Counted from the first letter of the stretch, positions 2,046-61,009 are shown. The stretch is DNA of 64,000 bases from Phycisphaerales bacterium (GCA_027451365.1 DAIDJN010000056.1:64001-128000), one strand, 5' to 3'. The notes: generated by a model not told the origin, from the sequence alone. Program-made: numbers and translations.

Positions 2046-3490
2046 GCGGCCCTCCAGGTCTGGTCCGTCTGTGCCGCCACCGCAAGCGGTATATCAAGAA
2101 TAAACATGGCACCCATGCCCAGCCCTTCGCTCCGGGCGGTCAGTGAACCACCCATTTGTTTTGCCGCCAGCGCGGAAGTATGCAGGCCGAAGCCGTGGCC
2201 GTCCGTTCGCGTGGTAAAACCATGCGAAAAAATGCGCGTTAAATTTTCTGTGGCAATGCCCGTGCCGGTGTCCCGGACCTCAAAAATAAGCCGCGACGGG
2301 TCCGCGGTCAGCGCACCGGCCCGCAGTGTCAGTACCCGTTCACCCGCGCAGCAGCGCATCGCATGTTTGGCGTTGCTGATCAGATTCACCAGAATCTGCA
2401 AAACCTGATGCTTGTCGATTTTCAGCGGCGGCAGCGCACTGATTTCCTTTACAATTTTTACGCGATGGCGTTCCAGGGATTCCAGATTAATACGAATGGC
2501 ATCCTCCACAATTTCCGCAAGACTTGCCGCCTCCTGTACACCCGACGACCGGGCGTAATTCTGCTGGCTTTTGACAATCTGCTTGACATGTTCAATATTG
2601 CCGACCAGGGAATTGATCTCATGCAGAATATCGCGCTGCTCGGTGGATAAATGGTCGGCCAGTTTGCACAGGTAATCACCAAGCTGCCGCCCTTTTTCGT
2701 CGGTGGTCAGAAAGGTGGCCAGATCCGGCTTGTGTTCCTGAAACATGGCGGCTACGCGGGTCAGACCGGACAACCGGCTGGAACGAAGCCTTTCGGCCGC
2801 CACGGATGCGGACACGTTAATGCTGTTAAGTACATTGCCCACATTGTGCAGCACGCCTGTGGCAATTTCCGCCATCCCAGCCTGGCGTGAAATACCCACA
2901 AGTTTGGAGGCAAGGGCCTCGCGTTCGGCCTCGGCGGCTTTGCGAATGGTAATATCCCGCAGCGTGCCCTCCAGATAACTGATGGCGCCCGTCTGGTCTT
3001 TCACCTGATGAATCGTTTCACTGATCCAGATCAATTGTCCATCTCGCCGGCGCACCATGGATTCCCAGTTATTGACTGAACCGTGACGGGCTACTTCATC
3101 AAAAATTTCCTTATAGCGACGGGGATCCACATAAATCTGCCGCCCCACATCCACCACGGCATCTTTAAGATCACCAGGTGTCAGATAACCCAGAATTCTG
3201 GCCATGGCCGGGTTAACGGAAAGATAACCGCCGGAAAGGGTCACCTGAAAAATTCCTTCGGTGACATTTTCAAAGATTGCGCGATATTTCAGTTCCGCGC
3301 GGGCCAGTTCGTCATTGCGTGCCAGCAATTCGCGCGAGCTTAATTCCATCGATCGTTCAATGAGTTCACGGTCTGTGTCGGCCTGGGAATACGCGCCGTC
3401 GACCATATTGCAGAATCGCTGGAATTCAGGTGTGGGCGGATCCATTCCGCCAAAGCACTTTTTTATTTGCCGGACAAGCAGGGGATGCAT
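2042..3490 (-). CDS. PAS-domain sensor histidine kinase
   Basis: H-box IATGVLHNVGNVLNS, N-box NLISNAKHAM, G1 DTGTG, G2 GHGFGL, and a PAS domain. Start placed at ATG 3490 (MHPLLVRQIKK), right after the FIST gene stop. Confidence 0.93.
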   Translation of the reverse strand: MHPLLVRQIKKCFGGMDPPTPEFQRFCNMVDGAYSQADTDRELIERSMELSSRELLARNDELARAELKYRAIFENVTEGIFQVTLSGGYLSVNPAMARILGYLTPGDLKDAVVDVGRQIYVDPRRYKEIFDEVARHGSVNNWESMVRRRDGQLIWISETIHQVKDQTGAISYLEGTLRDITIRKAAEAEREALASKLVGISRQAGMAEIATGVLHNVGNVLNSINVSASVAAERLRSSRLSGLTRVAAMFQEHKPDLATFLTTDEKGRQLGDYLCKLADHLSTEQRDILHEINSLVGNIEHVKQIVKSQQNYARSSGVQEAASLAEIVEDAIRINLESLERHRVKIVKEISALPPLKIDKHQVLQILVNLISNAKHAMRCCAGERVLTLRAGALTADPSRLIFEVRDTGTGIATENLTRIFSHGFTTRTDGHGFGLHTSALAAKQMGGSLTARSEGLGMGAMFILDIPLAVAAQTDQTWRAA

Positions 3491-3491
3491 G

Positions 3492-4634
3492 TTAAACCTC
3501 GCCAAAAGTGGTGATGGTCATGGTCTGATTGTGCAGAGCACATCGGGCGTCGGTATGGGCCGGTGATATCTCTCCATAGGAATAAAACCCGGTCGTGACC
3601 GCGCCGGGACCCAGCACATCACACACCGCTTCAACTTCCTCTTCCACGCGCTGTTGAAGCACCAGTTTGCGTCCAACACAACTGATTAAAATGGCCAATT
3701 GTGCCGTTCCGTCGTCAATGCGCCGCTGGCTGGCCTCCGCCGCGCCATGCGCACCGTCCACCAGCCGGTCGAAATTCGCCCGCATCAGGCGGGCCATGGA
3801 TCCCTCGGCAATGTCGCCGGCGAAGGTCATGCTCTGTTCCTTTTCATCCACCGCCAGAATGGTGCGTACCAGCGTTTCATCTCCACGCGGCTGACGCACG
3901 GTCAGCGGGAATAACAGACCGCTGGAAGGAAGGCGCGCCGCATGTTGCCCTAGATATTCCTTATAGAGCCCCAGTGCGCTGTGGCCATCAAGTTCATAAA
4001 GCACGTTGCCTCGCGAACGTGTCACCCGGCGTTCCGGACCGAAGGAATCCCATCCACCCATCGACCCATAGCCTACCCGCAGATTTTGCCCGTAAAAGCC
4101 CAGCAGAACCACACGCCCGCGGCCGCTGGTTCCCCCGGCGCATACATACGTTTCCGCGAACCGAGATCCATCTCCCGAAAGGCCTCCGGTGACCGCCACT
4201 TTGGCCGGCAGCCCGCTGCTCAGTCCCATGGCAAGCTGCGCACCGTTGACACTTAACCCGTCCGACAGCACAAACGCATGAACCAGCCCCTCCTTCGGAA
4301 GGCGATCGGCCAGTTCCTGACCGGTCTGGAAACTGTTCAGCGGATTGGTGATGGTGCCATCCACGGCACGAATGACGGACGATTCGAATTCCACGGCCGT
4401 GGCCGTGACGCTGTCATCCAGAACATGGGTTCCGGCAATTTCGCCCGCGGTAGAACATCCGCATATATAGGCATGTGGATGCAACGCCCGTATGTCCTCA
4501 AGCTTGTCGGCGTTGGACAGATGTTGTGTGGCACCGAATACCAGCACAAGGTCCGCCGCTGATTTATCTCCGACAGCTCCGGACCCATGTTGCCAGCCGT
4601 TGTCACAAGTCCACACCGATCGGGTTGCCTTCAT
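3492..4634 (-). CDS. FIST-domain sensor protein (NosP-like)
   Basis: GCSTAGEI, VTGGLSGDG, LYELDGHSAL, ISCVGRK, GFYSYGEISP and LHNQTMT are FIST_N/FIST_C motifs. ATG 4634 is preceded by AAAGGTGA. Confidence 0.9.
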   Translation of the reverse strand: MKATRSVWTCDNGWQHGSGAVGDKSAADLVLVFGATQHLSNADKLEDIRALHPHAYICGCSTAGEIAGTHVLDDSVTATAVEFESSVIRAVDGTITNPLNSFQTGQELADRLPKEGLVHAFVLSDGLSVNGAQLAMGLSSGLPAKVAVTGGLSGDGSRFAETYVCAGGTSGRGRVVLLGFYGQNLRVGYGSMGGWDSFGPERRVTRSRGNVLYELDGHSALGLYKEYLGQHAARLPSSGLLFPLTVRQPRGDETLVRTILAVDEKEQSMTFAGDIAEGSMARLMRANFDRLVDGAHGAAEASQRRIDDGTAQLAILISCVGRKLVLQQRVEEEVEAVCDVLGPGAVTTGFYSYGEISPAHTDARCALHNQTMTITTFGEV

Positions 4635-7305: not shown

Positions 7306-8133
7306 ATGCCGGATCAGCCAGTTTCAGCACTTCGCCGCCGGGTGGGTTGCGTCTCTTACCTGAATTCGAAGCCATTGATTGAACCGCTGGTCGGACGGTC
7401 TGACATTTATGTGGAATTTGCCGTCCCTTCAGCCCTTTCGGGCCTGCTTGTGACTGGCGCGGTGGATACCGCCCTGTTGCCGATCGTGGATTACCAGACC
7501 TGCCCGATGGAACTGCTTCTGGTGCCAGCCGGATGCATTGGTTGTCATGGCCATACCCTGACGGTCCGGATTTTTTCGCGCGTGCCGCCTGGTGAAATCA
7601 CCCGCCTTTTTGCGGATACGGACAGCCATACCAGCGTTATTCTCGCGCAGGTTATTCTGCGTGAGTTTTATCAGTCTTCGCCTGAAATCCTGCCGCTGCC
7701 CGAGGCCCGGGGCGATCCGGTGTGGGATGCAATGGAATCCGTCCTTCTGATAGGCGATAAAGTCATCAACGCCGCGCCGCCGCCCGGCCATTACCCATGG
7801 CAACTGGACCTTGGTGACCAGTGGACAAGAAACACCGGTCTTCCATTTGTATTTGCCATGTGGATGATGCCGACAAGCCGACCGGACGCAGCGCTGGCCC
7901 GGCTGCTGGCTGCGGCCCGTCTGGCCGGTGCCGCCATGACTGATGAGCTTGTGGCCCGCTATGCCGAGTCGCGGGGCTGGCCTCCCGATTTACTGCATCG
8001 ATATTACCGGCATTATCTCGATTATCAGGTCAAGCCCGCCAGCCGGGAAGGGATTGAGCGGTTTTACCAACTGGCCGCCAGCCACAATCTGCTGGCGGTG
8101 CATCGACCGATTCGATATCTGGATATGGTATGA
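7306..8133 (+). CDS. mqnA: Chorismate dehydratase (futalosine menaquinone pathway)
   Basis: VGCVSYLNSKPL, SHTSVIL, LLIGD, DLGDQWTRNTGLPFVFAMW. Confidence 0.88.
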   Translation: MPDQPVSALRRRVGCVSYLNSKPLIEPLVGRSDIYVEFAVPSALSGLLVTGAVDTALLPIVDYQTCPMELLLVPAGCIGCHGHTLTVRIFSRVPPGEITRLFADTDSHTSVILAQVILREFYQSSPEILPLPEARGDPVWDAMESVLLIGDKVINAAPPPGHYPWQLDLGDQWTRNTGLPFVFAMWMMPTSRPDAALARLLAAARLAGAAMTDELVARYAESRGWPPDLLHRYYRHYLDYQVKPASREGIERFYQLAASHNLLAVHRPIRYLDMV

Positions 8134-11404: not shown

Positions 11405-13270
11405 CTATTTCGTCGGATTCGGCGGTCGTTTGTGACTATTGACAAACGCCGCTAAATCCCAGGCTTGTTGACCGGTCAGTGTTCCACCTTTGCCCAGCGG
11501 CATGTTGGCCCGGATAAATTCCGCTGCCAGTTTCAGTTTGTGCATTCCCGCACCGCTGTTAAAGGAATGTGGCCCCCATAGCGGGGGGAATTGATAGTTT
11601 CCATTGATTAAAAGTCCCTGGCCATGATCGCCGTGGCACATCATGCAATCCACTGTGAAAAGCCGCTTGCCGCGTACCACACTGGGTGTGAATGCCGGTT
11701 TGGCCAAAGGCCGGTACCCGCGACCGGGCAGGTTAGCCCCGGTCGGCGCGCCGCGCGCCAGCCAAGATGCGTACGTCATCAGCGCAGTCATGGTTTTGCC
11801 ATTGGCCGGTGGCGCTTTGCCGTTCTCACTGTATATAAAACATTCCTGGATGCGTTTTTCCAGTGTGACAACCTGTTTTGCCTTGGCTTGGTAACGCGGA
11901 TATGCCGCAAATGCCGCCCATAGCGGCGCGGAATAAGCCATGCGTCCACTTTGCAGATGGCAGTTGATGCAACTTAATCCATCGCCAATATATCCGCTTG
12001 CATATTGCGGTGTGTGATCGAAAATGTTTTTTCCCAGCAGCGCCATTTTTCCGTAGGCGTTGGCGGGAATTTCCGCATTGGGCGGCGGCGTGAATGAAAT
12101 AACAGAGCCGTGGTTGCTTTTTAATACTCCCCAGGGAGCGCCCGGCCCGGCTGCGGATGTGGCGCTTGGGGGTGGGCCGCTACCCGTCGCTGAAGAAACC
12201 TGGGCCGATACGCCGGCAACGCCCAGCGACCGTCTTCCGGATTTGACCGGCTTAAACCCGTATTTTTCAAAAATAGCCAGAGCCGCGGGTGACTTAAGAA
12301 ATGCCAGCCATTGCCGCGCCGCCGCGACATGTGCGGCGCCCTTTACCACGGCACCCGCATAAATCGCGGTCGTGTTGTATTTTTCGGGAATGGAAATATT
12401 GGAAATGGGATGGCCGATCCGCTCCTGAAAAATTGCTTCCGACTTCCACGTTATGCCGGCGACCGCGAGGCCCTGCATCAGAAAAAGCGGAGTTTGCCGG
12501 TGGTGAATGTGGGTTAACAGGGTCTGGCCATCGGCTACTTTTGTCTGATAAACCATTTTCGCCAGAGCATCGCCTCCCGCTTTTTTCAGTGACAGTTTAA
12601 TCTGTCGCGCCACGCCTTCCCACGCCGGATTGGGCATTACCACTCGCACACCCGGCCGCCCCAGATCTCGCAGGTTTTGAATGTGGCCGGGATTTCCCCG
12701 CGGAACCATGATGGTGAGATTGTTCGTCGCATAGCTGATCACCGGGCCGGTCAGCACACCCTTTTTAACCAGAGCCGCCACTTTTAATTTGCCTGCGGCG
12801 TACACATCCGGCTTGACGGTCCATGTCATGTTGCCCACAGTAATTGTGCCGCCGGCTTTCATTTGTTCAATGAGAATGCCCGGAGGAAGCGTTTCATAAA
12901 ATAATTTTCCTCTGATCTGCGGATAAAGTTTCTCAAATGCCTGAGCCAGAGGAGCCATCGCGAAGTAATAATTCCCGCCCACAAAAATAACCAGACGGGC
13001 ATGAAACGGATCCCCGTGAAAATCCGGCAGATCATCCACCTCAGGTACCGTGAATTTAAGTCCCTTATGGATGGCCGGATCGTTGGCCTGGCCGCTCCAG
13101 GGTGGAAAAACGCCTTCCTTATAGTGCGGCGGTTCAACCGCGCCATTCCAGCTCACCGTGGCCGGTCGCGCAGCCAACAGCAGGCCACCGGCCAGCACAG
13201 TGGCCGGCAACGCCGCCAGTACAGAAATTTTCATAGCTGAAAGCCGGCTTTTAAATGTAGATAGTGTCAT
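11405..13270 (-). CDS. Fusion of a ModA-like periplasmic oxyanion-binding domain and a TsdA-type dihaem cytochrome c (thiosulfate dehydrogenase/tetrathionate reductase family)
   Basis: Sec signal. N-domain has FYETLPPG, VPRGNPGHIQNLRDL and AAARQWLAFLKSPAALAIFEKYGF. After a Ser/Pro/Ala linker, the C-domain has CINCH, RIQECFIYSENG, CMMCH, FPPLWGPHSFNSGAGM and FIRANMP. Confidence 0.88.
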   Translation of the reverse strand: MTLSTFKSRLSAMKISVLAALPATVLAGGLLLAARPATVSWNGAVEPPHYKEGVFPPWSGQANDPAIHKGLKFTVPEVDDLPDFHGDPFHARLVIFVGGNYYFAMAPLAQAFEKLYPQIRGKLFYETLPPGILIEQMKAGGTITVGNMTWTVKPDVYAAGKLKVAALVKKGVLTGPVISYATNNLTIMVPRGNPGHIQNLRDLGRPGVRVVMPNPAWEGVARQIKLSLKKAGGDALAKMVYQTKVADGQTLLTHIHHRQTPLFLMQGLAVAGITWKSEAIFQERIGHPISNISIPEKYNTTAIYAGAVVKGAAHVAAARQWLAFLKSPAALAIFEKYGFKPVKSGRRSLGVAGVSAQVSSATGSGPPPSATSAAGPGAPWGVLKSNHGSVISFTPPPNAEIPANAYGKMALLGKNIFDHTPQYASGYIGDGLSCINCHLQSGRMAYSAPLWAAFAAYPRYQAKAKQVVTLEKRIQECFIYSENGKAPPANGKTMTALMTYASWLARGAPTGANLPGRGYRPLAKPAFTPSVVRGKRLFTVDCMMCHGDHGQGLLINGNYQFPPLWGPHSFNSGAGMHKLKLAAEFIRANMPLGKGGTLTGQQAWDLAAFVNSHKRPPNPTK

Positions 13271-13330: not shown

Positions 13331-14188
13331 TTATTTGGCATACGAATAACCAGCCATGGTCAGCAACGGTAACGTCGCGACAATGCCCGGCGTCAGCACC
13401 ACGCCTGGTATCAGATGGTTGGTCAGATCTGCGGCCAGTTCCTCATGGGTTAAATGATCTGGGTTATGTCCTTTGGCCAGTAAGCCGCCGGAAAATTCCC
13501 AGATCGCATTATGGCAACCAAGAAATACCGCGCCCCGATCCATCAGCAATGGCAGGCAATTGGCGGATGGAGAGAACAGCCCCAGCGGGTCGTTGTAATC
13601 CGCGGCACTGGCGTTCCTGACTTTGGCCGGTATGTCCAGAAACGTGTTGCGTTTGAATTTGTGGCCAAGCACCGCGGGTAAATTGTATTTTTCCCAGACA
13701 TACGCATCGTACAATGCCAGATGGCATGTGCCATGGGTGGCGGAAATCGCAATAAAGTCCGCATTCCTGAACGACCAGACCTGGGCATTGATAGAGTTGC
13801 GCATCAGATTCAGCCAGGGGCTGCCGATGTCTGTATTGTCCCAGACCTGTTTGGGACTACCGCGATAGTGCAACAGCAAGTCCAGCGCCGCGCTGTCCCA
13901 TTGGTCCGGGTGGGTAAGAATCATGGGCACTTTTTTAAACTTTCTGTGACGCCGGGTTGCCGCCAGCGCAGCGGTAAGGGCTGCGAGCTTTGTCGCCCCC
14001 GTAGGTTCCAGATCTTTTCCCGCCGGAACAGCGGCAGCCGTTTGTGCATTGGCCCGCCCGATCCCGGAAAGCAGCGCCGCTCCGGCGACGGATCCGGTGG
14101 CCAGCCACGCGAGCATCTGGCGGCGTGGAATGGTATTTTCGTCCGTGAATGATGACGCGCCTGCGATCTGGTTCGATTTTTCTGACAT
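13331..14188 (-). CDS. Tat-exported DsrE-like protein, candidate Acidithiobacillus-type thiosulfate dehydrogenase
   Basis: AAGGAG RBS before ATG 14188. Twin-arginine signal PRRQMLAWLATGSVAGAALL...ANA. Motifs SATHG and RGAVFLGCHNA resemble DsrE/DsrF-like folds. The specific function is inferred. Confidence 0.65.
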   Translation of the reverse strand: MSEKSNQIAGASSFTDENTIPRRQMLAWLATGSVAGAALLSGIGRANAQTAAAVPAGKDLEPTGATKLAALTAALAATRRHRKFKKVPMILTHPDQWDSAALDLLLHYRGSPKQVWDNTDIGSPWLNLMRNSINAQVWSFRNADFIAISATHGTCHLALYDAYVWEKYNLPAVLGHKFKRNTFLDIPAKVRNASAADYNDPLGLFSPSANCLPLLMDRGAVFLGCHNAIWEFSGGLLAKGHNPDHLTHEELAADLTNHLIPGVVLTPGIVATLPLLTMAGYSYAK

Positions 14189-14302
14189 ACAGCACTCCTT
14201 ATGAAAAAGAAACTGGAAGTTAACCTGGGCCGGTTGCCCGCCATTGTTCATATCCTAGGCCGCCAACTAGTATATTGCCAATATATAATTACGATGTCAT
14301 AT

Positions 14303-47995: not shown

Positions 47996-49015
47996 ATGGC
48001 TTCTGTTCGTGAAATAGCCAAACAGCTCGGTGTCTCCGCGGCCACCGTGTCCCGTGCCATGAACAATCATCCGTTGGTGGCCGAAGATGTGCGGCAACGC
48101 GTCATTGTGGCCATGAATCGCAGTCGCTATGTGCCCACGGTCGGTCGGCGCGAAACTATGAACATCGCTTTTGCGTATACTGGTGTTGCCTCCATCGGCA
48201 GCCCGTTCGACGCCGCCCTGATGCAAGGCATGAGCGACCGCATGGAACAGTGCGGATTCGACCTGATGGTTCTTGACCTCCGCCGCGCCATGTTGCCCCG
48301 GGAAAACTATACCCAGATGTTTCTTCGGAAGGGCATTCGTGCAGCGGTTTTGCGTACCACGGCGGACACTATGGATATCTGTCGGCAGATTGCCGCGGAG
48401 CGCTTTCCGGCAATGGTGGTGGGGTATCATTTTGACGAACCGGAAGTGAATTACATTTACAGCAACTCTTATGCCGGCAGTTGCGAAGCGATGAGCCACC
48501 TGGTGGACCTTGGCCATACGCGTATCGCCATTTCCCTGCACGTGGTAGACGATTCCGACCACACCGATCGTCTGAACGCATGGAAATATGTCATGAAGCA
48601 GAATAAGCTCACGATGCCGGATAAATTCATCATTCGCGCCCCGGCCAGCCTGGAGGGCGGTGCCCAGTTAATTCGCCGCATTGCCGGCATGGTTCCACGG
48701 CCCACCGCTGTATATATTGCCGACCCGCTGGTGGCGGTGGGGGCAATGGCCGAGGCTCGCCAGATGGGCTGGGAAATTCCGCGCGATCTGTCCATCGTTG
48801 GATTTGACGACAGTGAACTGCGTTATATGGTCTATCCCAAACTGACCGCGGTCTGTCAGGATGCTCGCGCCGTCGGGCAGGAAGCCTTTGAATTAATTAA
48901 TCGACTGCTGGGCGTCAGCGGAGATCAGGCGACCGAAACCGTGTTTCGCCGCACTTTGGCGACCCATTTTGAAGTAAACGGTTCTACGGCTGCACCGGGG
49001 AAATCGTCTTTGTAA
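47996..49015 (+). CDS. LacI family transcriptional regulator
   Basis: SVREIAKQLGVSAATVSRAMN, HLVDLGHTRIA, IPRDLSIVGFDD, PKLTAV. Confidence 0.95.
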   Translation: MASVREIAKQLGVSAATVSRAMNNHPLVAEDVRQRVIVAMNRSRYVPTVGRRETMNIAFAYTGVASIGSPFDAALMQGMSDRMEQCGFDLMVLDLRRAMLPRENYTQMFLRKGIRAAVLRTTADTMDICRQIAAERFPAMVVGYHFDEPEVNYIYSNSYAGSCEAMSHLVDLGHTRIAISLHVVDDSDHTDRLNAWKYVMKQNKLTMPDKFIIRAPASLEGGAQLIRRIAGMVPRPTAVYIADPLVAVGAMAEARQMGWEIPRDLSIVGFDDSELRYMVYPKLTAVCQDARAVGQEAFELINRLLGVSGDQATETVFRRTLATHFEVNGSTAAPGKSSL

Positions 49016-49087
49016 ATAAGCGTATATGTGCAACGTACCTGTGTCGGGTGCGTGGCAATTCTATAGGTTGGTCTATCGTCGAAGGAG

Positions 49088-49822
49088 ATGCAGATGACTG
49101 AGAAATTTGGAAATAACGCAAAACAGGCAATTCATGGAGGATTGGGTTTGTCGCTGGCTGTCGCGGCAGTGCTGGCGATCGGTGCCGGTGCGGGCGCGGC
49201 GAAGGCGGGCACGATAACTTACGGCCTGCAGTTCGCACCCAGCGGTGATGGAACATTCGAAAGCTGGTCAACTTACGGTTCCAACATAACCGGCGTGGAG
49301 GCCAACAATCCGCCCACGTTCAATTCGTCGGATAACGGAGTGACCTTCACACTCGGAACAGCTACCCTTAAATTTACGGGCGGCCAAAATTACAGCACCG
49401 GTTCGGCATTGAACCAGTCATTTTACTATATGACGTCCAGTACTTCAGTACTTGCTGCCGATTTTACAGGCTTGAATGCCGGGGACACAATTGATTTTCA
49501 ATTTCTTGAGAGCTTGCAGCCTTTTTCGCCAACTGTCAAGGTAGTCGGCTCCACTTCCGGGTCATTGTCTAAATCCATCGCGTCGAGCCCGCATGGAAGC
49601 GCTTTTGTTGATTTAGGCTCCTTAACAGGCAACAACAGCTATACGATTACATCGTCGCTTAACCCCGGTGGCGGGGAGGGTGACGTTTCTGCTGCCCTTA
49701 TCACCATTACAAGCGGATCGATTTCCGCCGTGCCGCAACCCGCTTCCATGGGCCTGCTTGGGCTTGGTGGCTTGGGATGTATCGCCCTGGGCTTGATTGC
49801 CCGGCGGCGGATGAGACTTTGA
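49088..49822 (+). CDS. PEP-CTERM-type sorted surface protein (VPQP variant)
   Basis: AAGGAG RBS, signal peptide, Ser/Gly/Thr-rich body, and C-terminal VPQPASMGLLGLGGLG + TM + RRRMR. Confidence 0.88.
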   Translation: MQMTEKFGNNAKQAIHGGLGLSLAVAAVLAIGAGAGAAKAGTITYGLQFAPSGDGTFESWSTYGSNITGVEANNPPTFNSSDNGVTFTLGTATLKFTGGQNYSTGSALNQSFYYMTSSTSVLAADFTGLNAGDTIDFQFLESLQPFSPTVKVVGSTSGSLSKSIASSPHGSAFVDLGSLTGNNSYTITSSLNPGGGEGDVSAALITITSGSISAVPQPASMGLLGLGGLGCIALGLIARRRMRL

Positions 49823-50029
49823 ACGAATTGCTGAAACGAGCGGCGCCAGTAAGCGGCCGTCTCTTTCCCGGGTGAGGGAGAAGTATGGATGCGTACCCGC
49901 CCACATTACCGCGCTTTCCCAATCACCATGGGTGAAGCCGGGATAACCTGTTGAAAACGGGTGCGGCGGTGTTCGCCGCACTTTATCCGCCATTTGTTCC
50001 GGCGGATCATTGTAAATCAGGAGATATAT

Positions 50030-50731
50030 ATGAATTTCCATGCTTCTATTCGTGTGGCAGCCGTTCCGATGATCGGATTGGCGGCGATTTTCGCTCTGGC
50101 CGGGACCGCGACGGCCACGCCGGTGACTTACGGCCTGCAGTTCGCACCGACCAATTACACGGCCTACACAGGTTGGGCGTCCGGTGTGACGGTGGCGCCG
50201 TTTACGCCGCCGCCATTCAACGGCGTGGCGACCACGACCTATGCACTCGGATCGGCTTCCTTTGCCATCACTGGCAACAACTATAACATTCAGAATGGCA
50301 TAACGGGCGGTACGCCAACCACTGATATTTCCTGGTTGAACCGCGCCTTCTTTTTTGGCAATGGGGGCACCCCTTTAACCGCCACACTTTCCGGCCTTTC
50401 CGCCGGTGATACGGTGGATATGCAGTTCATTGAAAGCTTTCAGACGGGCAATGAACCGCAGGTGGCCATTTCGCCCGCATCCGGAAACACCCAGCCAACG
50501 GCCATTGCGACCGATACCAGCTTCACGGATGCAGGCACTTATACCGGCGCGACAAGCTACAATCTGACTTTTACCAATGCCGCTGGCGGTGCTGGCGAAT
50601 TCGATCTTTCCGGCGCGCTGATCACCATTACGCCCGCGGCAGCGCCCGAACCGGCTTCGCTGGGATTGTTCGCATTGGCGGCAACGGGCCTGCTGTTGCT
50701 GAAACGTCGGCAGACCGGCTCCGCAAGGTAA
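50030..50731 (+). CDS. PEP-CTERM sorted surface protein, paralog of the preceding gene
   Basis: AGGAG RBS, signal peptide, C-terminal APEPASLGLFALAATGLLLLKRR. Confidence 0.9.
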   Translation: MNFHASIRVAAVPMIGLAAIFALAGTATATPVTYGLQFAPTNYTAYTGWASGVTVAPFTPPPFNGVATTTYALGSASFAITGNNYNIQNGITGGTPTTDISWLNRAFFFGNGGTPLTATLSGLSAGDTVDMQFIESFQTGNEPQVAISPASGNTQPTAIATDTSFTDAGTYTGATSYNLTFTNAAGGAGEFDLSGALITITPAAAPEPASLGLFALAATGLLLLKRRQTGSAR

Positions 50732-50812
50732 GGGTGCCGGTGCGCCGTGGCGGAAACCAGACTGAATCGGAAATAAAAGGCGGTCGGGGCGGAACGTCCC
50801 AAGGAGTCTGTC

Positions 50813-51577
50813 ATGCGGAAGCAAGCCTTTACTCTTGTGGAACTGCTTGTGGTGATTTCCATCATTGCGATCCTGATTTCGCTGCTGCTGCCGGCGCTTA
50901 GCCGGGCGCGCATGGCGGCGGACAGTATCGCCTGTGAATCCAATCTGCGGCAGATACAGGTCGGCGTGATGGAGTACGCCAATGCCTTTTCCGGACATTT
51001 GCCGTCAACGTTTTTTGGTCCGCAGGGCTGGCAAGACGCTGTCTTCGCCTATTTGTATAACAAAGGGACGCTGGTGCCGCGCAACAGTTTGTCGCCCACG
51101 CTGGAATCGCAGTTTGAACAGGCCTTCTGGTGTCCATCAAGAAATGTCAATATGACAAATCCATGGGGACTCAATTATGCGGCCAATCTGGTGGTGTTCC
51201 CGGTGCCCGGCACGGTTGGCCCGGCGCGCGGCCTTCTGCCACTGGTTAATGATCCATCCGAGGTGATCGCGGTCGGAGATGCCAATCAGGCGTTTCCGGA
51301 TGGCGGCGCCTGGTACACGTTTGACTGGGCGGTGTGGAACAATCCGGCAGTTTATGCGCCCACAACCAATGTCCCGATCGGGGGATATTACGGAACCGGT
51401 AATACCGATACATTCAACGGCAACACGATCGGTTCCACTGGCCTTCGATACCGCCATTTTTCAACCGGCGTAAACAATGGTTTTGCCAATGTGGTCTTTT
51501 TTGATGGCCACGTGCAGTCGATTGCGGCATCGGGGAATTCCACAGGGCTTTTTGTTTATAACATTGTTCCAAACTAG
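50813..51577 (+). CDS. Prepilin-type cleavage/methylation protein (DUF1559 / H-X9-DG type)
   Basis: A|FTLVELLVVISIIAILISLLLPALSRAR, C.SNLRQI, FWCPS, RYRH...ANVVFFDGHV. Confidence 0.93.
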   Translation: MRKQAFTLVELLVVISIIAILISLLLPALSRARMAADSIACESNLRQIQVGVMEYANAFSGHLPSTFFGPQGWQDAVFAYLYNKGTLVPRNSLSPTLESQFEQAFWCPSRNVNMTNPWGLNYAANLVVFPVPGTVGPARGLLPLVNDPSEVIAVGDANQAFPDGGAWYTFDWAVWNNPAVYAPTTNVPIGGYYGTGNTDTFNGNTIGSTGLRYRHFSTGVNNGFANVVFFDGHVQSIAASGNSTGLFVYNIVPN

Positions 51578-51661
51578 CCGATTTTCATTGTGGCACAGGT
51601 ACCCTTTTGGCCCGGCTGTGTTCGCCGGTGATTGACAGGAACTATTTTTCTGAGGTTTTTA

Positions 51662-53458
51662 ATGTTGAATCTGAAATGTGTCCTCCGGACGGTGTCTGGT
51701 CTCTTCCTGGCTGGTCTGCTGGCGGCGCCGGTTGCCGCGGCGCCGGTCAAGGTGCAACTGGTAAAATCGGGCAATGGCTTTGAACTGTTGCGCGGCGGTA
51801 AGCCCTATTTTGTGAAGGGTGCCGGCGGCGGCTTTTCTTTGGCCGCACTTCACGCCGCTGGTGGCAATTCCGGACGCACCTGGGGTGCAGATGGCATTCA
51901 GAACCAGCTTGATACGGCCGCGAAACTCCACATGACCATGCTGGTCGGCTTCTGGCTGGGACATCCGGGAGATGGTTTTAACTATCACAATGCCGTTGCA
52001 GTGCGGGCGCAATATGAACAATGCAAAAAATATGTGCTGGAATACCGCAACGATCCCGCCGTGCTGGCCTGGGGCATTGGCAACGAAATGGAAAATGGTT
52101 ATGACCATAAAATTCTTTGGAAGGCTGTGGAACAAATTGCCAAAATGTGTCATCGCCTGGATCCCAACCATCCCACAGTGACGGTGGTGGCGGAAATTGG
52201 CGGCCACAAAGTTCAGAAAATAAATAAATATTGCCCCGATATTGATATAATCGGAATTAACAGTTATGGCGGGGGGGCTTCGCTTTACCAGCGCTATCTG
52301 AAGGCTGGTGGTGTCAAGCCGTATCTGATTACCGAATTCGGACCTCCGGGAACGTGGGAAATCGGTCGTGATAATATTGGTCTGCCGGTGGAGGAAACCA
52401 GCTCGCAAAAAGCGCTTGCGTACGCGGCGACCTATCAGCACAGCGTGCTGAACACCCACGGGATGTGTTTAGGTTCTTATGCATTTACATGGGGCTGGAA
52501 GGTGGAAGCAACGCCCACCTGGTACGGGTTGATTCTGCCCGATGGCCGACGGCTGGGCGGGGTGGATTACCTCCAGCATTTCTGGACCGGCCACTGGCCT
52601 GCCCACCTGTGTCCGGTCATAAAATCCATCACAATGGATGGCGGCGACAAACTGGCACCCGGCAGTGTGCTGCACGCCCGCGTGGTGGCTGTCCAGCCCG
52701 GAGGCGGCGCACTAAGTTATCATTGGATATTGCGACGCGATATTTCCAATCTGAATATTGCCGGCGGCCTTGGGGGGGCCATGCCGACGGCATATAAAAA
52801 AGCCATCGCGCAAAACGGAGCGGATCATGTCTCCGTTAAGATGCCGCAAAACGGGGGCTATTATCGATTGTTTTGTTATGTATATAACACACACAATGGC
52901 GCAGCGGTGGGTAACCTGCCCCTTCAGGACACCGCCAAACAGCGTCCCATGCGCTCTCCGGTCGCGAAAATCCCCCTGGTTCTGTTGGGCAATGGGGCCA
53001 ATTCACCCTTCGTCCCGGCCGGCTGGATGGGCGATTATTCCGCCATCGGATATGACGGCAATTGCCCGACAGATCCGCATTCGGGAAAATCCTGCGTGAA
53101 GATTTCATTCAAACAATCCAACGGCTGGGGCGGCATCGCCTGGCAGGATCCCGCCAACGACTGGGGTAAAACCTATGGCGGCTTGAATTTGAAGAAGGCT
53201 AAAGCACTAAGCTTCTGGGCGCGGGGGAAAGTCGGCGGTGAATCGGTGACATTCGGCGTGGGATTAATCGGCTCTGACCAGCCATACCATGATACCGTCC
53301 ATGTGTCCCGCAAAGTCACACTTGGCACGCACTGGAAGAAGTATACTATTGATCTGAAAGGTAAAAACTTGTCCCGCGTCATCACCGGCTTTTACTGGAC
53401 CGGTGGGGCCAATGGTGCCCCATTTGCTTTTTATCTTTCGAATATCAAGTATCAGTAA
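51662..53458 (+). CDS. Secreted clan GH-A (GH2 TIM-barrel-like) glycoside hydrolase with C-terminal carbohydrate-binding module
   Basis: GGNSGRTWG, WGIGNE (acid/base), GINSYG, ITEFGP (nucleophile); C-terminal PAGWMGD...WGGIAWQDPANDWG...LSFWARG. Confidence 0.85.
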   Translation: MLNLKCVLRTVSGLFLAGLLAAPVAAAPVKVQLVKSGNGFELLRGGKPYFVKGAGGGFSLAALHAAGGNSGRTWGADGIQNQLDTAAKLHMTMLVGFWLGHPGDGFNYHNAVAVRAQYEQCKKYVLEYRNDPAVLAWGIGNEMENGYDHKILWKAVEQIAKMCHRLDPNHPTVTVVAEIGGHKVQKINKYCPDIDIIGINSYGGGASLYQRYLKAGGVKPYLITEFGPPGTWEIGRDNIGLPVEETSSQKALAYAATYQHSVLNTHGMCLGSYAFTWGWKVEATPTWYGLILPDGRRLGGVDYLQHFWTGHWPAHLCPVIKSITMDGGDKLAPGSVLHARVVAVQPGGGALSYHWILRRDISNLNIAGGLGGAMPTAYKKAIAQNGADHVSVKMPQNGGYYRLFCYVYNTHNGAAVGNLPLQDTAKQRPMRSPVAKIPLVLLGNGANSPFVPAGWMGDYSAIGYDGNCPTDPHSGKSCVKISFKQSNGWGGIAWQDPANDWGKTYGGLNLKKAKALSFWARGKVGGESVTFGVGLIGSDQPYHDTVHVSRKVTLGTHWKKYTIDLKGKNLSRVITGFYWTGGANGAPFAFYLSNIKYQ

Positions 53459-53528
53459 GGCCGCGGATTATGCCGCATCGGTACGTCGAATGTCCGGATC
53501 GTGAACTGGCTTGTATAAGGACGCAATC

Positions 53529-54161
53529 ATGTTGAGAACTATTTCCAATCAAATTTGTGGCGGTCTTTGGCTGCTGATTCTGCTGGTGGCAATCGTTTGT
53601 GCGATGGGCAACCATCGGGTTGCCATCGCGGCCGATGCCACGCCGTCAGGTGCTGCCAAAGCCGCATTGCCACTGGTGATTTACAGCGACGGCAACGGGA
53701 ATTCGGGCTACATACCCAGCGGCTGGATGGGCGATACCGGTAACATTCATTACAAGGGGCATTGCACCACCGCCAACCCACCCAAGGGAACCAACTGTAT
53801 CCGCATTAAATATGCCTCCGGCACCGGCTGGGGCGGCATTGTATGGCAAAATCCGGCCAACAACTGGGGCGATGCCCAGGGCGGCTTCGACCTGACCGGT
53901 GCCAAAACGCTTTCCTTCTGGGCAAAAGCCAAACATGCGGGCCTGAAGGTGACTTTCGGTTTTGGTGTTATCGGTGCCGGGAAAACCTACAGCGACTCTT
54001 CGAAGGGGTCCAGAAAAATCACCCTGACAACAAAATGGAAAAAATACACTATCCGGCTTAAGGGAAAAGATCTGACCCGCATCGTTACCGGATTTTTCTT
54101 TTCAGCCGGTGCCCCAGGCAAGCCCTTTACGTTTTATCTGGACAATATTGAATACAAATAA
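53529..54161 (+). CDS. Stand-alone secreted carbohydrate-binding module (CBM11-like/galactose-binding fold)
   Basis: PSGWMGD...WGGIVWQNPANNWG...LSFWAKA...WKKYTI, colinear with the C-terminal domain of the upstream hydrolase. Confidence 0.8.
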   Translation: MLRTISNQICGGLWLLILLVAIVCAMGNHRVAIAADATPSGAAKAALPLVIYSDGNGNSGYIPSGWMGDTGNIHYKGHCTTANPPKGTNCIRIKYASGTGWGGIVWQNPANNWGDAQGGFDLTGAKTLSFWAKAKHAGLKVTFGFGVIGAGKTYSDSSKGSRKITLTTKWKKYTIRLKGKDLTRIVTGFFFSAGAPGKPFTFYLDNIEYK

Positions 54162-54280
54162 CCGGCGAATTTCCAGCGCATGGTATGCATCATTTCCCCA
54201 CGGAAAAGGCCGTCGGGGTGAACTTCCCGTTTAAGAGGATGCCGCGGGAAAAAGAGCCTTCCGAAGCGACAGGAGTCCGT

Positions 54281-55888
54281 ATGCGTCAATATCTGCGAAA
54301 TCTGATGGTGTCGGCGGGGGCGATGGCCCTGGGGCTGATTCTGACGGCGGGGAATTCCACCGCGGCGCACATCGCGCATGGTAAACTGCTTTTTAAATTG
54401 AATTTCACTGGGCCGATTGGCTCTCTTCCATCGCAAAAGATATGGAAATATGACACGGGCTGGGACCCCAATTGCGGCACGTATTACATAGACTCGGCTA
54501 AAACCATGGGAGTGGTGGCTGACTCGCACGCCCAGAGCGGCAAGGCTCTGGCGATTCGCGTGGTGCCTTATCCCGGCAAGCCGGGCGCATTCCTTTCGGC
54601 GCGCATTACCACGTTTGCCAATCCTGCGTATCATGTCAAATATGGATATATAGAGGCACGTATAAAGGTTCCTGGCGGACCTGATGGTGCCGGTTCAGGA
54701 TCGTGGCCGGCATTCTGGCTTCTGGGGACGAATTTTCCAAAAGTCGGCTGGCCCCAGTGCGGCGAGATTGACACCATGGAAAGCGCCGGCAATCGGCCCG
54801 GCACCGTTACCGGCACCATACACGGTCCGGGCACAGGTGCTGGCGGCCCTTATTCCCTGCCCGCGGGAAAGGAATTCTGGCAGCATTACCATACATTCGC
54901 CGTTCAGTGGAGTCCGCTGGAAATTGAGTTCCTTTGCGATGGTCATGTGTATGCCCTTTTTACCCCGGCGGACCAGAACAAGAATAGCTGGGTGTTTGAC
55001 CATCCATTTTATATTATTCTCAATGTGGCCGAGGGCGGGGCGTATGGCGGCGCTCCCAATGGAAATGCCATTTATCCGCAGACCATGCTCGTGGACTGGA
55101 TTAAGGCCTATGCGTGGAAACTTGCTGTTCCCACCGCTGTTCACGCACGCGCGATTGGCAATGGTGGCGTTCATGTGTCGTGGATGGATACGGCCTTTGA
55201 TGAAAGCGGTTTTGTTCTGCAGCGATCGACATCGCGCGATTTTAGCGAGGGTGTTCATACTCGGAAGCTTTCCGCATTGGCGGCCGGTTATACCGATTCG
55301 GCGCTGCCAGCAGATCAGAAGTGTTACTATCGAATAGCCGCAGTGGAAGGAAAGACACGGTCCGCATGGTCCGCAGTCGCGGCCGTCAATCCAGTTGCGG
55401 GAACTCCGTCAGCGGGCGGTCAGGTTTCCGATCATCCGGTTCTGGCTATTAATTGCGGCGGCCCGGCGGGAGATGGATTTATAGCGGATCGTTATCACTC
55501 AAAATCGGCGCACGACGCGCCCGATAACCATCCGATTGCGCTGGCGCATGGCCTGCCAGCCATTCCGCAAAGCGTGTATCAATCCAATCGGTACGGTGGC
55601 TTTACGTACAGACTGCCCCACTTAAAGCCGCACGGCCATTATGTTCTGGAACTGAATTTTTCGGAAGGCTATTGGCGGGCACCACGTAAGCGGCTTTTTG
55701 CGGTATTCGCCAATGGCGTCCCGATTTTAAATGACTTTGACATTTATGCCGCCGCCGGCGGACGGTTCAAGGCGGTGAATCGCAGGTTTCATCTGCGAGC
55801 CAATGCGCAGGGGCAGATTGATTTGCGGTTTGTATCGCAGCGCGACAATGCCCAAGTCAATGGCATTGAAGTGTATGCGGTTAAATAG
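54281..55888 (+). CDS. GH16 glycoside hydrolase (laminarinase-like) with Fn3 and malectin domains
   Basis: WPAFWLLG, WPQCGEIDTME (ExDxxE), FDHPFYIILNVA; Fn3 WMD...ESGF; malectin AINCGG...FSE...RLF...NGIEV. AGGAG RBS. Confidence 0.92.
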   Translation: MRQYLRNLMVSAGAMALGLILTAGNSTAAHIAHGKLLFKLNFTGPIGSLPSQKIWKYDTGWDPNCGTYYIDSAKTMGVVADSHAQSGKALAIRVVPYPGKPGAFLSARITTFANPAYHVKYGYIEARIKVPGGPDGAGSGSWPAFWLLGTNFPKVGWPQCGEIDTMESAGNRPGTVTGTIHGPGTGAGGPYSLPAGKEFWQHYHTFAVQWSPLEIEFLCDGHVYALFTPADQNKNSWVFDHPFYIILNVAEGGAYGGAPNGNAIYPQTMLVDWIKAYAWKLAVPTAVHARAIGNGGVHVSWMDTAFDESGFVLQRSTSRDFSEGVHTRKLSALAAGYTDSALPADQKCYYRIAAVEGKTRSAWSAVAAVNPVAGTPSAGGQVSDHPVLAINCGGPAGDGFIADRYHSKSAHDAPDNHPIALAHGLPAIPQSVYQSNRYGGFTYRLPHLKPHGHYVLELNFSEGYWRAPRKRLFAVFANGVPILNDFDIYAAAGGRFKAVNRRFHLRANAQGQIDLRFVSQRDNAQVNGIEVYAVK

Positions 55889-58810: not shown

Positions 58811-59473
58811 TTATTTGCGCACAATAAACTTGCCGTACATGCCGGCCTTGGCGTGGGCGGGCATTTGACACAGGTAATAATACGTGCCGGCCTTCTTGCA
58901 GGTGAATGTAACGGTGGAAACCCAATAGCTGGATTGTTTTATATTGCTTCCAGTGCGCGGCATCATCAGCGGAATGCTGGTCAGTTGCCCGGGCAGCGGA
59001 AGCGTCATGACGCCGCCGTAAGGTGGGGCCTTTGTACCAATGGCGATTCCGTGAATCATGCCCGGGCCGTAGTCCATATTCACCAGAGTAAGTCGGATCA
59101 CCGAGCCTGCCGGCACGCTTATCGTTGGGTCCACCAGCTTGTGGACTTCATACGTGGTATCCGGAAAGCCTGGTTCCACGGCCACAAAAACCAGGTGTAT
59201 TTTCCGGCCCGTGAACGTGACCAATTTTGCGGACTTATTCGCCGTTCCGGTGGTATCGTCATGCTTCACCAGCGGAGCGACCTTGGCCCAAGGTAACAAA
59301 ACCTGTCCTTCGGTCGGCTTGACCTTCATATGCATGCCCGGCATGTTGCCCATTCCGGGCATGTTTCCCATGCCGCCCCGCACCTGCGATGGCGCGGCGA
59401 ATTGAATGCCGACAGCGAACAACAGGGCGGCGAGGCCAGCGGATAAGATTGCGGGTTGAGAAATGCGCTTCAT
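58811..59473 (-). CDS. Rusticyanin-like type-1 blue copper protein with Met-rich N terminus
   Basis: Signal peptide; AVEPGFP..YEVH...PTISVPAG, H (MIHG), KAPPY, GTYYYLCQMPAHAKAGMYGKFIV (C-x4-H-x4-M). Confidence 0.88.
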   Translation of the reverse strand: MKRISQPAILSAGLAALLFAVGIQFAAPSQVRGGMGNMPGMGNMPGMHMKVKPTEGQVLLPWAKVAPLVKHDDTTGTANKSAKLVTFTGRKIHLVFVAVEPGFPDTTYEVHKLVDPTISVPAGSVIRLTLVNMDYGPGMIHGIAIGTKAPPYGGVMTLPLPGQLTSIPLMMPRTGSNIKQSSYWVSTVTFTCKKAGTYYYLCQMPAHAKAGMYGKFIVRK

Positions 59474-59537
59474 GACATGACTCCAGTACGGGTTCTTACG
59501 ACAAACCACCACAATGTTGCAGAAAAATCCCATGCAT

Positions 59538-60998
59538 TTAATACTCCGGTTTCGCGGCCGGGCTTGACGGGCCGGGAATGGGAACCGGCGTCTGGCCGGG
59601 ATTGATACCGTCGCGCTGCATGTTGGCGGCGGTGGCGTTTAATGCCAGTTCACCGGGTGGATTCTGATACCAGCCGGGATCATTGTAGGTTGTAATGCCA
59701 TCCCGAACTTTAAGAATCGTGAACATGCCGCCCATATCAATCAGGCCGTGCGGGCCTTTTCCACCCAGCATGGGCGTGCTGTTGGGTATGCTGGGCATAC
59801 CCATGGTCATGCCCATGCCATTCTGCCCCATGGTCATGTAATCGGGCAGAAGCTTTCGCATTTTATGGCCCAGGGTTCCCGGTTTTACACCAATCATGTT
59901 GGGGAAGTTATGGCCCATCTGCGTCATGGCATGGTGTGTCATGTGGCAGTGCATGGCCCAGTCCCCCGGATTACTGGCCACAAATTCCACCGTTCGCGTG
60001 GTACCTACCGGTACCAGAACGGTGGTGGCCGGCTGCCAGGCGCTGCGCGGATATTCGCCGCCATCACTGGCCACAATTTGAAACGAATAGTTATGAAGAT
60101 GAATTGGGTGATGATCCATGGGGCCAAGATTTCCCAGGCGGATGCGTACCCGCTGGCCAGTGCGAACCACCAGCGGATGCGTCGCCGGAAAGGATTTTGC
60201 GTTCATGGTAAATACGTTAAAATCCGTCATTTCCAGCGGGTTCGGCCGGTAAGCGCCCGGGTCAATCCGCCATTCATGAAGCATGATTGCGAAATCCCGG
60301 TCTACCGCACGGTCCGGGGCCGGCGTGCGCGGATGAATAATAAACAGCCCCGTCATGCCCAGGCCGATCTGCGTCATTTCATCAAAATGGGAATGAAACA
60401 TTTTGGTGCCATGGTCCACCAGATTAAATTCATACATATATGTTTCACCCGGCGGAATGGCCTTTTGTGTCAGCCCGGCCATGCCGTCCATGCCGCAGGG
60501 CACATACACGCCGTGCCAGTGTGTGGTGGTGGCCTCCGGAAGCCGATTGGTGACATAGATTCGCACCCGTTCACCCTGCACCGCTTCAAGTACCGGATGA
60601 ATCATGCCATTGTATCCCCAGCATAAAGCCTTAAGCCCGGGGCAGAATTCATTCCACACTTCCATGGCCACCAGATGAAACACTTTCACACCATTTACAA
60701 TTTTCCATGGAATGGTGCCGGAATTGGGGGATTCCACTGGTATATAATCCCGGCCCGGCAGGCCGGGCGCAAGAGGCCTGGCGTAGAGAGCTTTACGCAA
60801 ATCTGCTGTGTCCGGCAGGCCGGTGGAATGATCCGGCGAGTCGGCGTGTGCCGCTTCAACTGCCGCGCCAGCGGTCTGGCCACCGGTGCCCGAACCCAGC
60901 ATGGCTGCGGCGGCACCAGCCGCCACTCCGGATGCCAGCAGATTGCGACGGGATAATCCAGAACGTATGGAAGTTGTGTGGGACATATCTTGTGGCAT
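59538..60998 (-). CDS. Tat-exported two-domain multicopper oxidase
   Basis: SRRNLL Tat signal; HWHG, FHSH, HPIHLH, MHCHMTHHAMTQM; Met-rich C-terminal segment. Confidence 0.93.
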   Translation of the reverse strand: MPQDMSHTTSIRSGLSRRNLLASGVAAGAAAAMLGSGTGGQTAGAAVEAAHADSPDHSTGLPDTADLRKALYARPLAPGLPGRDYIPVESPNSGTIPWKIVNGVKVFHLVAMEVWNEFCPGLKALCWGYNGMIHPVLEAVQGERVRIYVTNRLPEATTTHWHGVYVPCGMDGMAGLTQKAIPPGETYMYEFNLVDHGTKMFHSHFDEMTQIGLGMTGLFIIHPRTPAPDRAVDRDFAIMLHEWRIDPGAYRPNPLEMTDFNVFTMNAKSFPATHPLVVRTGQRVRIRLGNLGPMDHHPIHLHNYSFQIVASDGGEYPRSAWQPATTVLVPVGTTRTVEFVASNPGDWAMHCHMTHHAMTQMGHNFPNMIGVKPGTLGHKMRKLLPDYMTMGQNGMGMTMGMPSIPNSTPMLGGKGPHGLIDMGGMFTILKVRDGITTYNDPGWYQNPPGELALNATAANMQRDGINPGQTPVPIPGPSSPAAKPEY

Positions 60999-61009
60999 AT
61001 ACGGTTTCC

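Follow-up and report, generated by a model that had tools for sequence, protein, structure and literature searches.

A Phycisphaerales gene joining an AFE_0043-type oxyanion-binding domain to a TsdA-type dihaem domain, encoded directly behind tsd

A 64,000 nucleotide stretch of DNA from a Phycisphaerales bacterium (GCA_027451365.1, DAIDJN010000056.1:64001-128000), referred to below as the window, was found to encode on its minus strand (11405–13270) a protein of 621 amino acids in which a signal peptide and an oxyanion-binding domain of the AFE_0043 type are joined, through a linker, to a TsdA domain. Directly upstream lies tsd, which encodes a haem-free thiosulfate dehydrogenase (Tsd) of the AFE_0042 type and belongs to the same system as the fusion; this gene was absent from an earlier note on the same DNA, which had singled out the fusion. 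We propose that thiosulfate is converted to tetrathionate in the periplasm, that the binding domain captures thiosulfate for the TsdA to which it is tethered, and that the electrons pass to a cytochrome c chain and oxygen, a reading that we regard as about evenly poised between right and wrong.

Architecture and integrity of the fusion gene

The single open reading frame (ORF) of 621 codons described in the earlier note was confirmed to be open along its whole length, and an AAGGA ribosome-binding site was found just upstream of its start. The predicted Sec signal peptide, read from the sequence (approximately amino acids 1–34; 13169–13270), has by eye a basic N-terminal end followed by a hydrophobic stretch and carries no twin-arginine. 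It precedes an N-terminal arm (amino acids 41–92; 12995–13150) with the motifs FPPW and TVPEVDDLPDFHG, which is kept across the binding-protein subfamily and falls outside the SBP_bac_11 match. The binding-protein domain itself (amino acids 93–340; 12251–12994) is followed by a linker (amino acids 341–390; 12101–12250) of which 63% is Ser, Pro, Ala or Gly and which varies in sequence and in length, from approximately 18 to 53 residues, among homologues. The dihaem domain occupies amino acids 391–621 (11405–12100). Pfam analysis assigned amino acids 93–340 to SBP_bac_11 (E 8e-48), 431–509 to SoxA-TsdA and 532–613 to cytochrome c. The motifs all lay where the earlier note had placed them: FEKYGF at amino acids 334–339, the haem 1 CxxCH (C434, C437 and H438) at 434–438 (11957–11971), the active-site segment RIQECFIYSENG at 473–484, the haem 2 CxxCH (C542, C545 and H546) at 542–546 (11633–11647) and ANMP at 588–591. 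Scans for promoters and terminators gave scores at chance level.

A protein search, in which 8000 candidates of 341–1087 amino acids were scored, revealed 25 protein clusters, among the 120 listed of 412 matches, that aligned over 92–100% of the fusion with 59–100% identity. Strong matches were present in 23 of the 45 genomes of its Phycisphaerae family. Both domains lay in a single open frame in 21 of the 45, which represent seven genera and are all of the genomes with both halves on one contig; the other two matches ended at contig ends. Contigs from all four mine-drainage runs (one study) bridged the linker between 12100 and 12260, over which the earlier note had asked for read continuity to be confirmed, and contained no insertion or deletion in the ORF. 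No stop codon was found in the ORF among the 11 variants translated (the variant table has 34 further rows). Together the homologue clusters, family genomes, bridging contigs and stop-free variants ruled out a frameshift or mis-assembly as the origin of the fusion, which is a real gene and not an assembly artefact. An AlphaFold model of the whole protein, built from a 25-row alignment, was of low confidence (predicted local distance difference test (pLDDT) 49.8, predicted template modelling score 0.34), and carried no information on how the domains dock; a fold search with it again matched TsdA, Sbp and ModA.

Identity of the dihaem domain

The solved structures closest to the C-terminal domain were TsdBA of Marichromatium purpuratum (5LO9, E 8e-64) and TsdA of Allochromatium vinosum (E 5e-50), the latter pairing its residues 6–235 with amino acids 391–616 of the fusion. 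Both CxxCH motifs, K463, R473, C477, S481, G575, N589 and M590 were invariant in all 25 fusion clusters. An alignment with A. vinosum TsdA placed R473, C477 and S481 (11828–11854) at Arg119, Cys123 and Ser127, K463 at Arg109 and G575 at Gly221. The haem 2 distal Met is provided by N589-M590-P591 (11498–11506), in which N589-M590 aligned with the Lys/Met pair of A. vinosum and Asn takes the place of Lys. Arg119, Ser127 and a Cys ligand of haem 1 are among the residue criteria for TsdA, and the Arg109 position is Lys in some TsdAs (PMC4423706); for haem 2 the criterion is a distal Met preceded by Lys or Asn (PMC5146829). SoxA, in contrast to TsdA, has an additional arginine and works with SoxY; the fusion scored below the SoxA cut-off (50.8 against 110 bits), the equivalent of Ser127 was present, and no SoxY was found in the 93%-complete genome. 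As judged from its sequence, the C-terminal domain agrees with TsdA in every respect that was compared, namely homology over the whole length, the Cys, Arg and Ser of haem 1 and the Asn-Met of haem 2. The earlier identification of a TsdA-type dihaem enzyme is upheld by these nearest structures and by the ligands and substrate residues kept in every cluster, and the domain very likely performs TsdA chemistry.

Identity of the binding domain

The binding domain scored below the cut-offs for ModA (36.7 against 62.5 bits), Sbp (32.4 against 155.5 bits) and CysP (24 against 308 bits). Among comparison proteins, whose ModA-like and Sbp-like labels are based on sequence and adjoining permeases, the ModA-like one (E 1e-10) and the Sbp-like one (E 8e-9) were at roughly the same distance and the WtpA-like one (E 4e-5) was further away. 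The earlier description of this domain as ModA-like is therefore correct at the level of the fold but not at that of the family. His256-His257-Arg258 and Trp275 were invariant at the ligand loops, together with Glu218, which is Ser in Sbp, Val in the ModA-like and Asp in the WtpA-like protein; the loop WEGVAR stands where Sbp and CysP have SGGAR. These loops were located from the residues that we take to contact the ligand in Sbp, ModA and WtpA.

Close relatives, with 60–71% identity, occur as stand-alone proteins in Acidithiobacillus, Thiomonas, Sulfuriferula, acetobacters and Gemmatimonadota. The Sbp of A. ferruginosus showed 70% identity and is encoded in a locus with the organisation SLAC1-tsd-sbp-doxDA-rhodanese-redoxin-doxDA-sbp-tsd. 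This locus has the gene order of AFE_0041-0044 and the gene set of the thiosulfate cluster reviewed in PMC6335251 (Fig. 6 legend); AFE_0041-0044, including AFE_0043, are listed as up-regulated on sulfur (PMC2754497, table). The 70% identity and the matching synteny in A. ferruginosus make the binding domain, on sequence grounds, an orthologue of the AFE_0043-type orphan Sbp encoded in the tsd-sbp-doxDA cluster of Acidithiobacillus, an assignment that runs through the A. ferruginosus copy and its synteny with AFE_0043. AFE_1498, the characterised ModA/WtpA of A. ferrooxidans, was considered as a possible identity of AFE_0043 and rejected, as the two are separate loci. All components of the fusion are known or annotated, and databases list it under an automatic name, 'ABC-type molybdate transport system substrate-binding protein'.

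The upstream tsd gene

The end of tsd (13331–14188, minus strand) is separated from the start of the fusion by 60 bp. Its likely start is the ATG at 14188, which follows AAGGAG; the longest ORF begins at 14251, and the shorter frame is preferred because it fits a 28-nucleotide insertion found at 14228, upstream of this ATG, in three of the four runs. The product passed NCBIfam NF052225 (349.8 against 300 bits), carries the twin-arginine motif PRRQML and contains no CxxCH. Of the 45 family genomes, the 23 that encode the binding domain are also those that carry this gene, directly upstream of it wherever the contig permits.

An AlphaFold model of Tsd, with a pLDDT of about 90 or above over amino acids 80–306, had DsrE, DsrF or TusBCD proteins as all of its nine best structural matches, the top one with Z 12.3 and a root-mean-square deviation of 1.4 Å over 105 of 108 residues; the first unrelated match had Z 4.8. 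Foldseek also ranked the same DsrE-type proteins first, but with E 0.03. Sequence searches with Tsd gave no match in Pfam, DsrE included, and nothing in the PDB, and returned from the ESM Atlas its own family alone. Cys246 (13514–13516) was invariant in 56 of 56 sequences, and a weak profile match to the exported DsrE group (E 0.002, probability 14%) aligned it with the cysteine of that family. Tsd is thus predicted, from the model, to have the DsrE sulfur-carrier fold with one invariant cysteine.

Gene neighbourhoods and origin of the fusion

The best 79 loci of 366 confirmed genome matches to the binding protein were surveyed; being related, they do not count as independent samples. Immediately upstream of the binding protein was tsd alone in 44, a gene for an exported DsrE alone in 26, both in one and neither in eight, two of which had a DsrE-family gene placed divergently. 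TsdA was encoded in 31 of the 79 loci, TsdB in 24 and DoxDA in 33. The binding protein was a separate gene in 70 loci, and tsdA, tsdB or doxDA accompanied it in 48 of these. TsdB, the electron acceptor of TsdA, was found with unfused TsdA in 22 of 22 loci, and a gene for a cytochrome bd subunit was also present in four doxDA loci. This sulfur-gene context in many lineages supports a role for the binding domain in thiosulfate or tetrathionate chemistry, as the earlier note had suggested. Its observation that no transporter lies beside the fusion extended to the related loci, since no ModB/CysT-type permease was found in L001-L102 with queries that matched control loci. An ATP-binding cassette (ABC) ATPase gene beside four fusion loci was considered as a partner and rejected, as it is convergent and of the haem/cobalamin/siderophore type. 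In L001 a further ABC ATPase match is located 700 bp upstream of tsd.

Two further features of the surveyed loci were recorded. In some DsrE-type modules (L029, L037, L042, L051, L061, L068 and L070) the binding-protein gene is immediately followed by a second, shorter SBP_bac_11 gene. Additionally, two binding-protein loci (L011:6000-7343 and L028:6681-7532) adjoin homologues of genes presumed to belong to a tetH cluster; the homologue in L011 is of the gene behind tetH and that in L028 is a TetH-like fragment.

Trees of the two domains were built with FastTree and rooted at the midpoint, after nine duplicate loci and identical sequences had been dropped. The Phycisphaerae fusions formed one clade in both, with support of 0.998 for TsdA and 0.984 for the binding domain. 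One protein, P0027 (802 amino acids, one contig), carries Sbp, TsdB and TsdA in one chain and grouped with unfused proteins in both trees; a metagenome scan with it revealed no further Sbp-TsdB-TsdA ORF in the 21 best of 80 loci. The simplest history, from these sequences, would be that a tsd-sbp-tsdB-tsdA arrangement lost tsdB and gave rise to the fusion, once in the family, and that P0027 is a second, independent fusion. In P0044 (826 amino acids, Ca. Hydrogenisulfobacillus filiaventi) the same binding domain is joined to a 480 amino acid domain that had no match in Pfam and no clear one in the Atlas.

Host genome and other Planctomycetota

The host genome is 93% complete, and doxD, soxY, Pfam DsrE, RuBisCO, YeeE and tsdB were not found in it. 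Nor did it match an A. ferruginosus protein that we take, from its position, its propeller matches and general knowledge, to be tetrathionate hydrolase. It encodes subunits of alternative complex III (ACIII), CoxA/CoxB, cytochrome bd and cytochrome c assembly proteins. At L121 (C59:28000-46000) the ACIII genes lie directly before the cytochrome c oxidase genes, and CoxB there has two CxxCH motifs. Molybdate is served by a separate system of a WtpA-like receptor with ModB-ModC, which includes the only clear ModB-like permease of the genome. Outside the window (L122:1165-2796 and 2721-3734), a ModB-like permease and an ATPase are encoded in one ORF of 543 amino acids, behind the WtpA-like receptor.

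Stand-alone TsdA-like proteins with the active-site cysteine were found in 9 of 400 other Planctomycetota sampled (L112-L120), and none of the nine genes had this binding protein nearby. It follows that the fusion and its module, and not TsdA itself, are special to the family. The nine proteins carry RxLNCFMRS, five have VAMP at haem 2, and the gene in L117 is adjoined by a DsrE-domain gene.

Elsewhere in the window, 7306–8133 encodes a menaquinone biosynthesis protein of the futalosine pathway (PF02621). A row of genes for cupredoxin-like, multicopper-oxidase-like and outer-membrane efflux-like proteins (58811–62506) is probably for copper resistance. The region 47996–55888 appears to encode a LacI-type regulator, two PEP-CTERM-like proteins, a prepilin-type protein and glycoside-hydrolase-like proteins.

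Proposed role and alternative explanations

In the reading that we propose, tsd and the fusion gene would specify a periplasmic unit for oxidising thiosulfate to tetrathionate, in which the fused binding domain would catch thiosulfate and hold it by the intact TsdA active site instead of handing it to a transporter. In steps borrowed from characterised TsdA enzymes, thiosulfate would join the haem 1 cysteine (C477), a second thiosulfate would free tetrathionate, and two electrons would exit through haem 2. The electrons would pass along a cytochrome c-type chain (ACIII cytochromes and cytochrome c oxidase) to oxygen, providing extra energy for a probable heterotroph, while tetrathionate would be released and Tsd would act alongside by its DsrE-type cysteine. 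Substrate may plausibly pass straight from the binding domain to the tethered haem; we infer the ligand of the binding domain, the hand-over to TsdA, the direction and the electron acceptor. The oxidative direction is favoured because TsdB, an electron acceptor of TsdA (PMC6879331), pairs with unfused TsdA in all 22 loci and because of the cytochrome bd gene in the four doxDA loci. As C. jejuni TsdA is half-saturated at 280 µM thiosulfate (PMC5146829), a tighter binder could help at low thiosulfate.

Several observations weigh against this proposal. No ligand for the binding-protein subfamily was reported in the full-text literature searched, and the invariant Glu218 pairs with the Asp of the WtpA-like protein, so that metal oxyanions or a protonated ligand are also candidates. 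The variable length of the linker argues against a fixed docking geometry. TsdA is bidirectional, and the Asn-Met of the fusion is common to the tetrathionate-reducing enzyme of C. jejuni; the search of the genome found no tsdB, which makes the electron acceptor conjectural. The commonest neighbour of the binding protein is Tsd or DsrE (71 of 79 loci) and not TsdA (31 of 79), and 22 of the 70 unfused loci, many from Thiomonas and some cut by contig ends, had no tsdA, tsdB or doxDA in the fetched flank. A lone binding protein with no module gene directly adjoining it was found in L021, L031, L032 and L039.

The frequency of Tsd or DsrE beside the binding protein bears on the main alternative, which we consider somewhat unlikely and in which the binding domain serves Tsd. 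Tsd would hold thiosulfate on Cys246 as a Cys-S-thiosulfonate, in the manner of SoxY or DsrE3A, with TsdA as its redox partner; TsdA, or DoxDA in other lineages, would then let the electrons out of a three-part relay and be interchangeable in that role. The DsrE-type fold predicted for Tsd, the invariance of Cys246 and the alternation of Tsd and exported DsrE upstream of the binding protein would fit this, as would the Cys-S-thiosulfonate that DsrE3A forms with tetrathionate and carries (PMC4175335). Tsd is reported to reduce neither ubiquinone nor horse cytochrome c (PMC6335251), and its electron acceptor is drawn as '?' in a pathway legend (PMC10859504). However, Tsd is also reported to be active alone (PMC6335251) and TsdA forms tetrathionate without a carrier. 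The profile match between Tsd and exported DsrE is weak, and likeness of fold does not show function. In a broader form, a doubtful one that we put forward tentatively, there may be a widespread but unrecognised thiosulfate relay in the periplasm with three elements: an exported cysteine carrier of DsrE fold (Tsd or DsrE), a binding protein that supplies enzymes and has no transporter, and an outlet for electrons that can be exchanged, either TsdA/TsdBA to cytochromes or DoxDA to quinone. Such a relay would resemble the SoxYZ-SoxAX system but consist of other components; its carrier subunit would be the protein described in Acidithiobacillus as a 'haem-free thiosulfate dehydrogenase', and the fusion would be its Rosetta stone.

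The unit could also work in the opposite direction and reduce tetrathionate in anaerobic respiration, its basic pocket taking tetrathionate and its electrons coming from menaquinol through ACIII; we think this unlikely. In its favour, tetrathionate is more stable in acid than thiosulfate, and the genome carries ACIII genes and one for menaquinone biosynthesis. At its 93% completeness, neither tsdB nor a gene that might consume tetrathionate (tetrathionate hydrolase-like, soxY or doxD) was found. TsdA enzymes are bidirectional with a direction that sequence does not fix (PMC6879331), and the tetrathionate-reducing TsdA of C. jejuni has Asn before the haem 2 Met (PMC5146829). Yet the same Asn-Met occurs in M. 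purpuratum TsdBA, a thiosulfate dehydrogenase, and a K208N change left the directionality of A. vinosum TsdA as before (PMC6879331). Every related module, moreover, lies beside partners associated with oxidation (TsdB, DoxDA or Tsd).

It is distinctly improbable that the fusion merely couples expression or export, with the binding domain buffering a product or inhibitor (sulfite, sulfate or tetrathionate) or acting as a regulator and handing nothing over. This would agree with the variable, low-complexity linker, with the separate binding protein of most loci and with its union to an unrelated domain in P0044, but the fusion has been kept in all 21 family genomes with both halves on one contig, and a second, independent fusion to TsdBA exists (a single sequence). 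Finally, Pfam SBP_bac_11, the fold likeness to ModA and Sbp, the molybdate label in databases and the alignment of Glu218 with the WtpA-like Asp could suggest a receptor of molybdate, tungstate or sulfate that serves an ABC transporter encoded elsewhere and is joined to TsdA incidentally, but the sub-threshold ModA, Sbp and CysP scores, the absence of a permease from 102 loci, the genome's only clear ModB-like permease having a WtpA-like receptor of its own, and the sulfur-enzyme neighbours across many lineages make this very improbable.

If the proposed capture of thiosulfate for TsdA is true, the binding-protein fold would here be put to an unusual use, in the service of a soluble redox enzyme and not of a transporter. 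This would also account for the long-known orphan Sbp of bioleaching bacteria, which has no transporter. The fusion offers a soluble protein pair with which to ask for the ligand of AFE_0043 and the destination of the electrons of the haem-free Tsd. The data also suggest that approximately half of the genomes in this mine-drainage planctomycete family can interconvert thiosulfate and tetrathionate, which surveys based on sox and dsr would miss; in one acid mine drainage genome paper that includes Phycisphaerae metagenome-assembled genomes, sulfur oxidation was judged by dsr and sox only (PMC8357290). The earlier note knew of no description of this architecture, and the full-text literature searched, which did not reach supplements, likewise contained no account of the fusion; nor did it mention the shared module or assign a DsrE fold to Tsd.

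Comparison with known systems

The fusion locus shares the order tsd then sbp with the A. ferrooxidans tsd-sbp-doxDA-rhd cluster (AFE_0041-0050), and neither has an ABC permease. Identity to the A. ferruginosus copies was 58% for Tsd and 70% for Sbp. Unlike the Acidithiobacillus cluster, the fusion locus lacks DoxDA, rhodanese, ResA and SLAC1 and has TsdA joined to Sbp; additionally, RuBisCO and a tetrathionate hydrolase-like gene were not found in the host. A review describes Acidithiobacillus as being without TsdA and keeps TSD and TsdA apart as two systems (PMC6335251). The fusion links TSD, TsdA and DoxDA, which appear there as separate routes.

Comparison with TsdA of A. vinosum and Campylobacter jejuni and TsdBA of M. 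purpuratum (PDB 4WQ7, 4V2K and 5LO9) showed 38–45% identity, with the His/Cys haem 1, the His/Met haem 2 and the thiosulfate-binding residues in common. Whereas the N-terminal partner in TsdBA is the dihaem TsdB, that of the fusion is a binding protein. The fusion also has Lys at the positions of A. vinosum Arg109 and Arg224 and, unlike these systems, is encoded behind a haem-free Tsd in a genome in which no tsdB was found.

The ModA, Sbp/CysP and WtpA receptors belong to the same fold class as the binding domain and their ligand loops can be aligned with it, Trp275 corresponding to the Trp of the AWENE loop of Sbp. Identity is approximately 20–30%, and the binding domain differs in its conserved N-terminal arm of 50 residues, in the His-His-Arg and Glu of its ligand loops and in having no transporter. 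With the DsrE, DsrF and TusBCD carriers, for example DsrE3A of Metallosphaera, Tsd shares its predicted fold and a cysteine in a G-x-x-F/V-x-x-C motif. In contrast to these carriers, Tsd is probably exported, as indicated by its twin-arginine motif, is larger (approximately 230 amino acids when mature) and is annotated as an enzyme.

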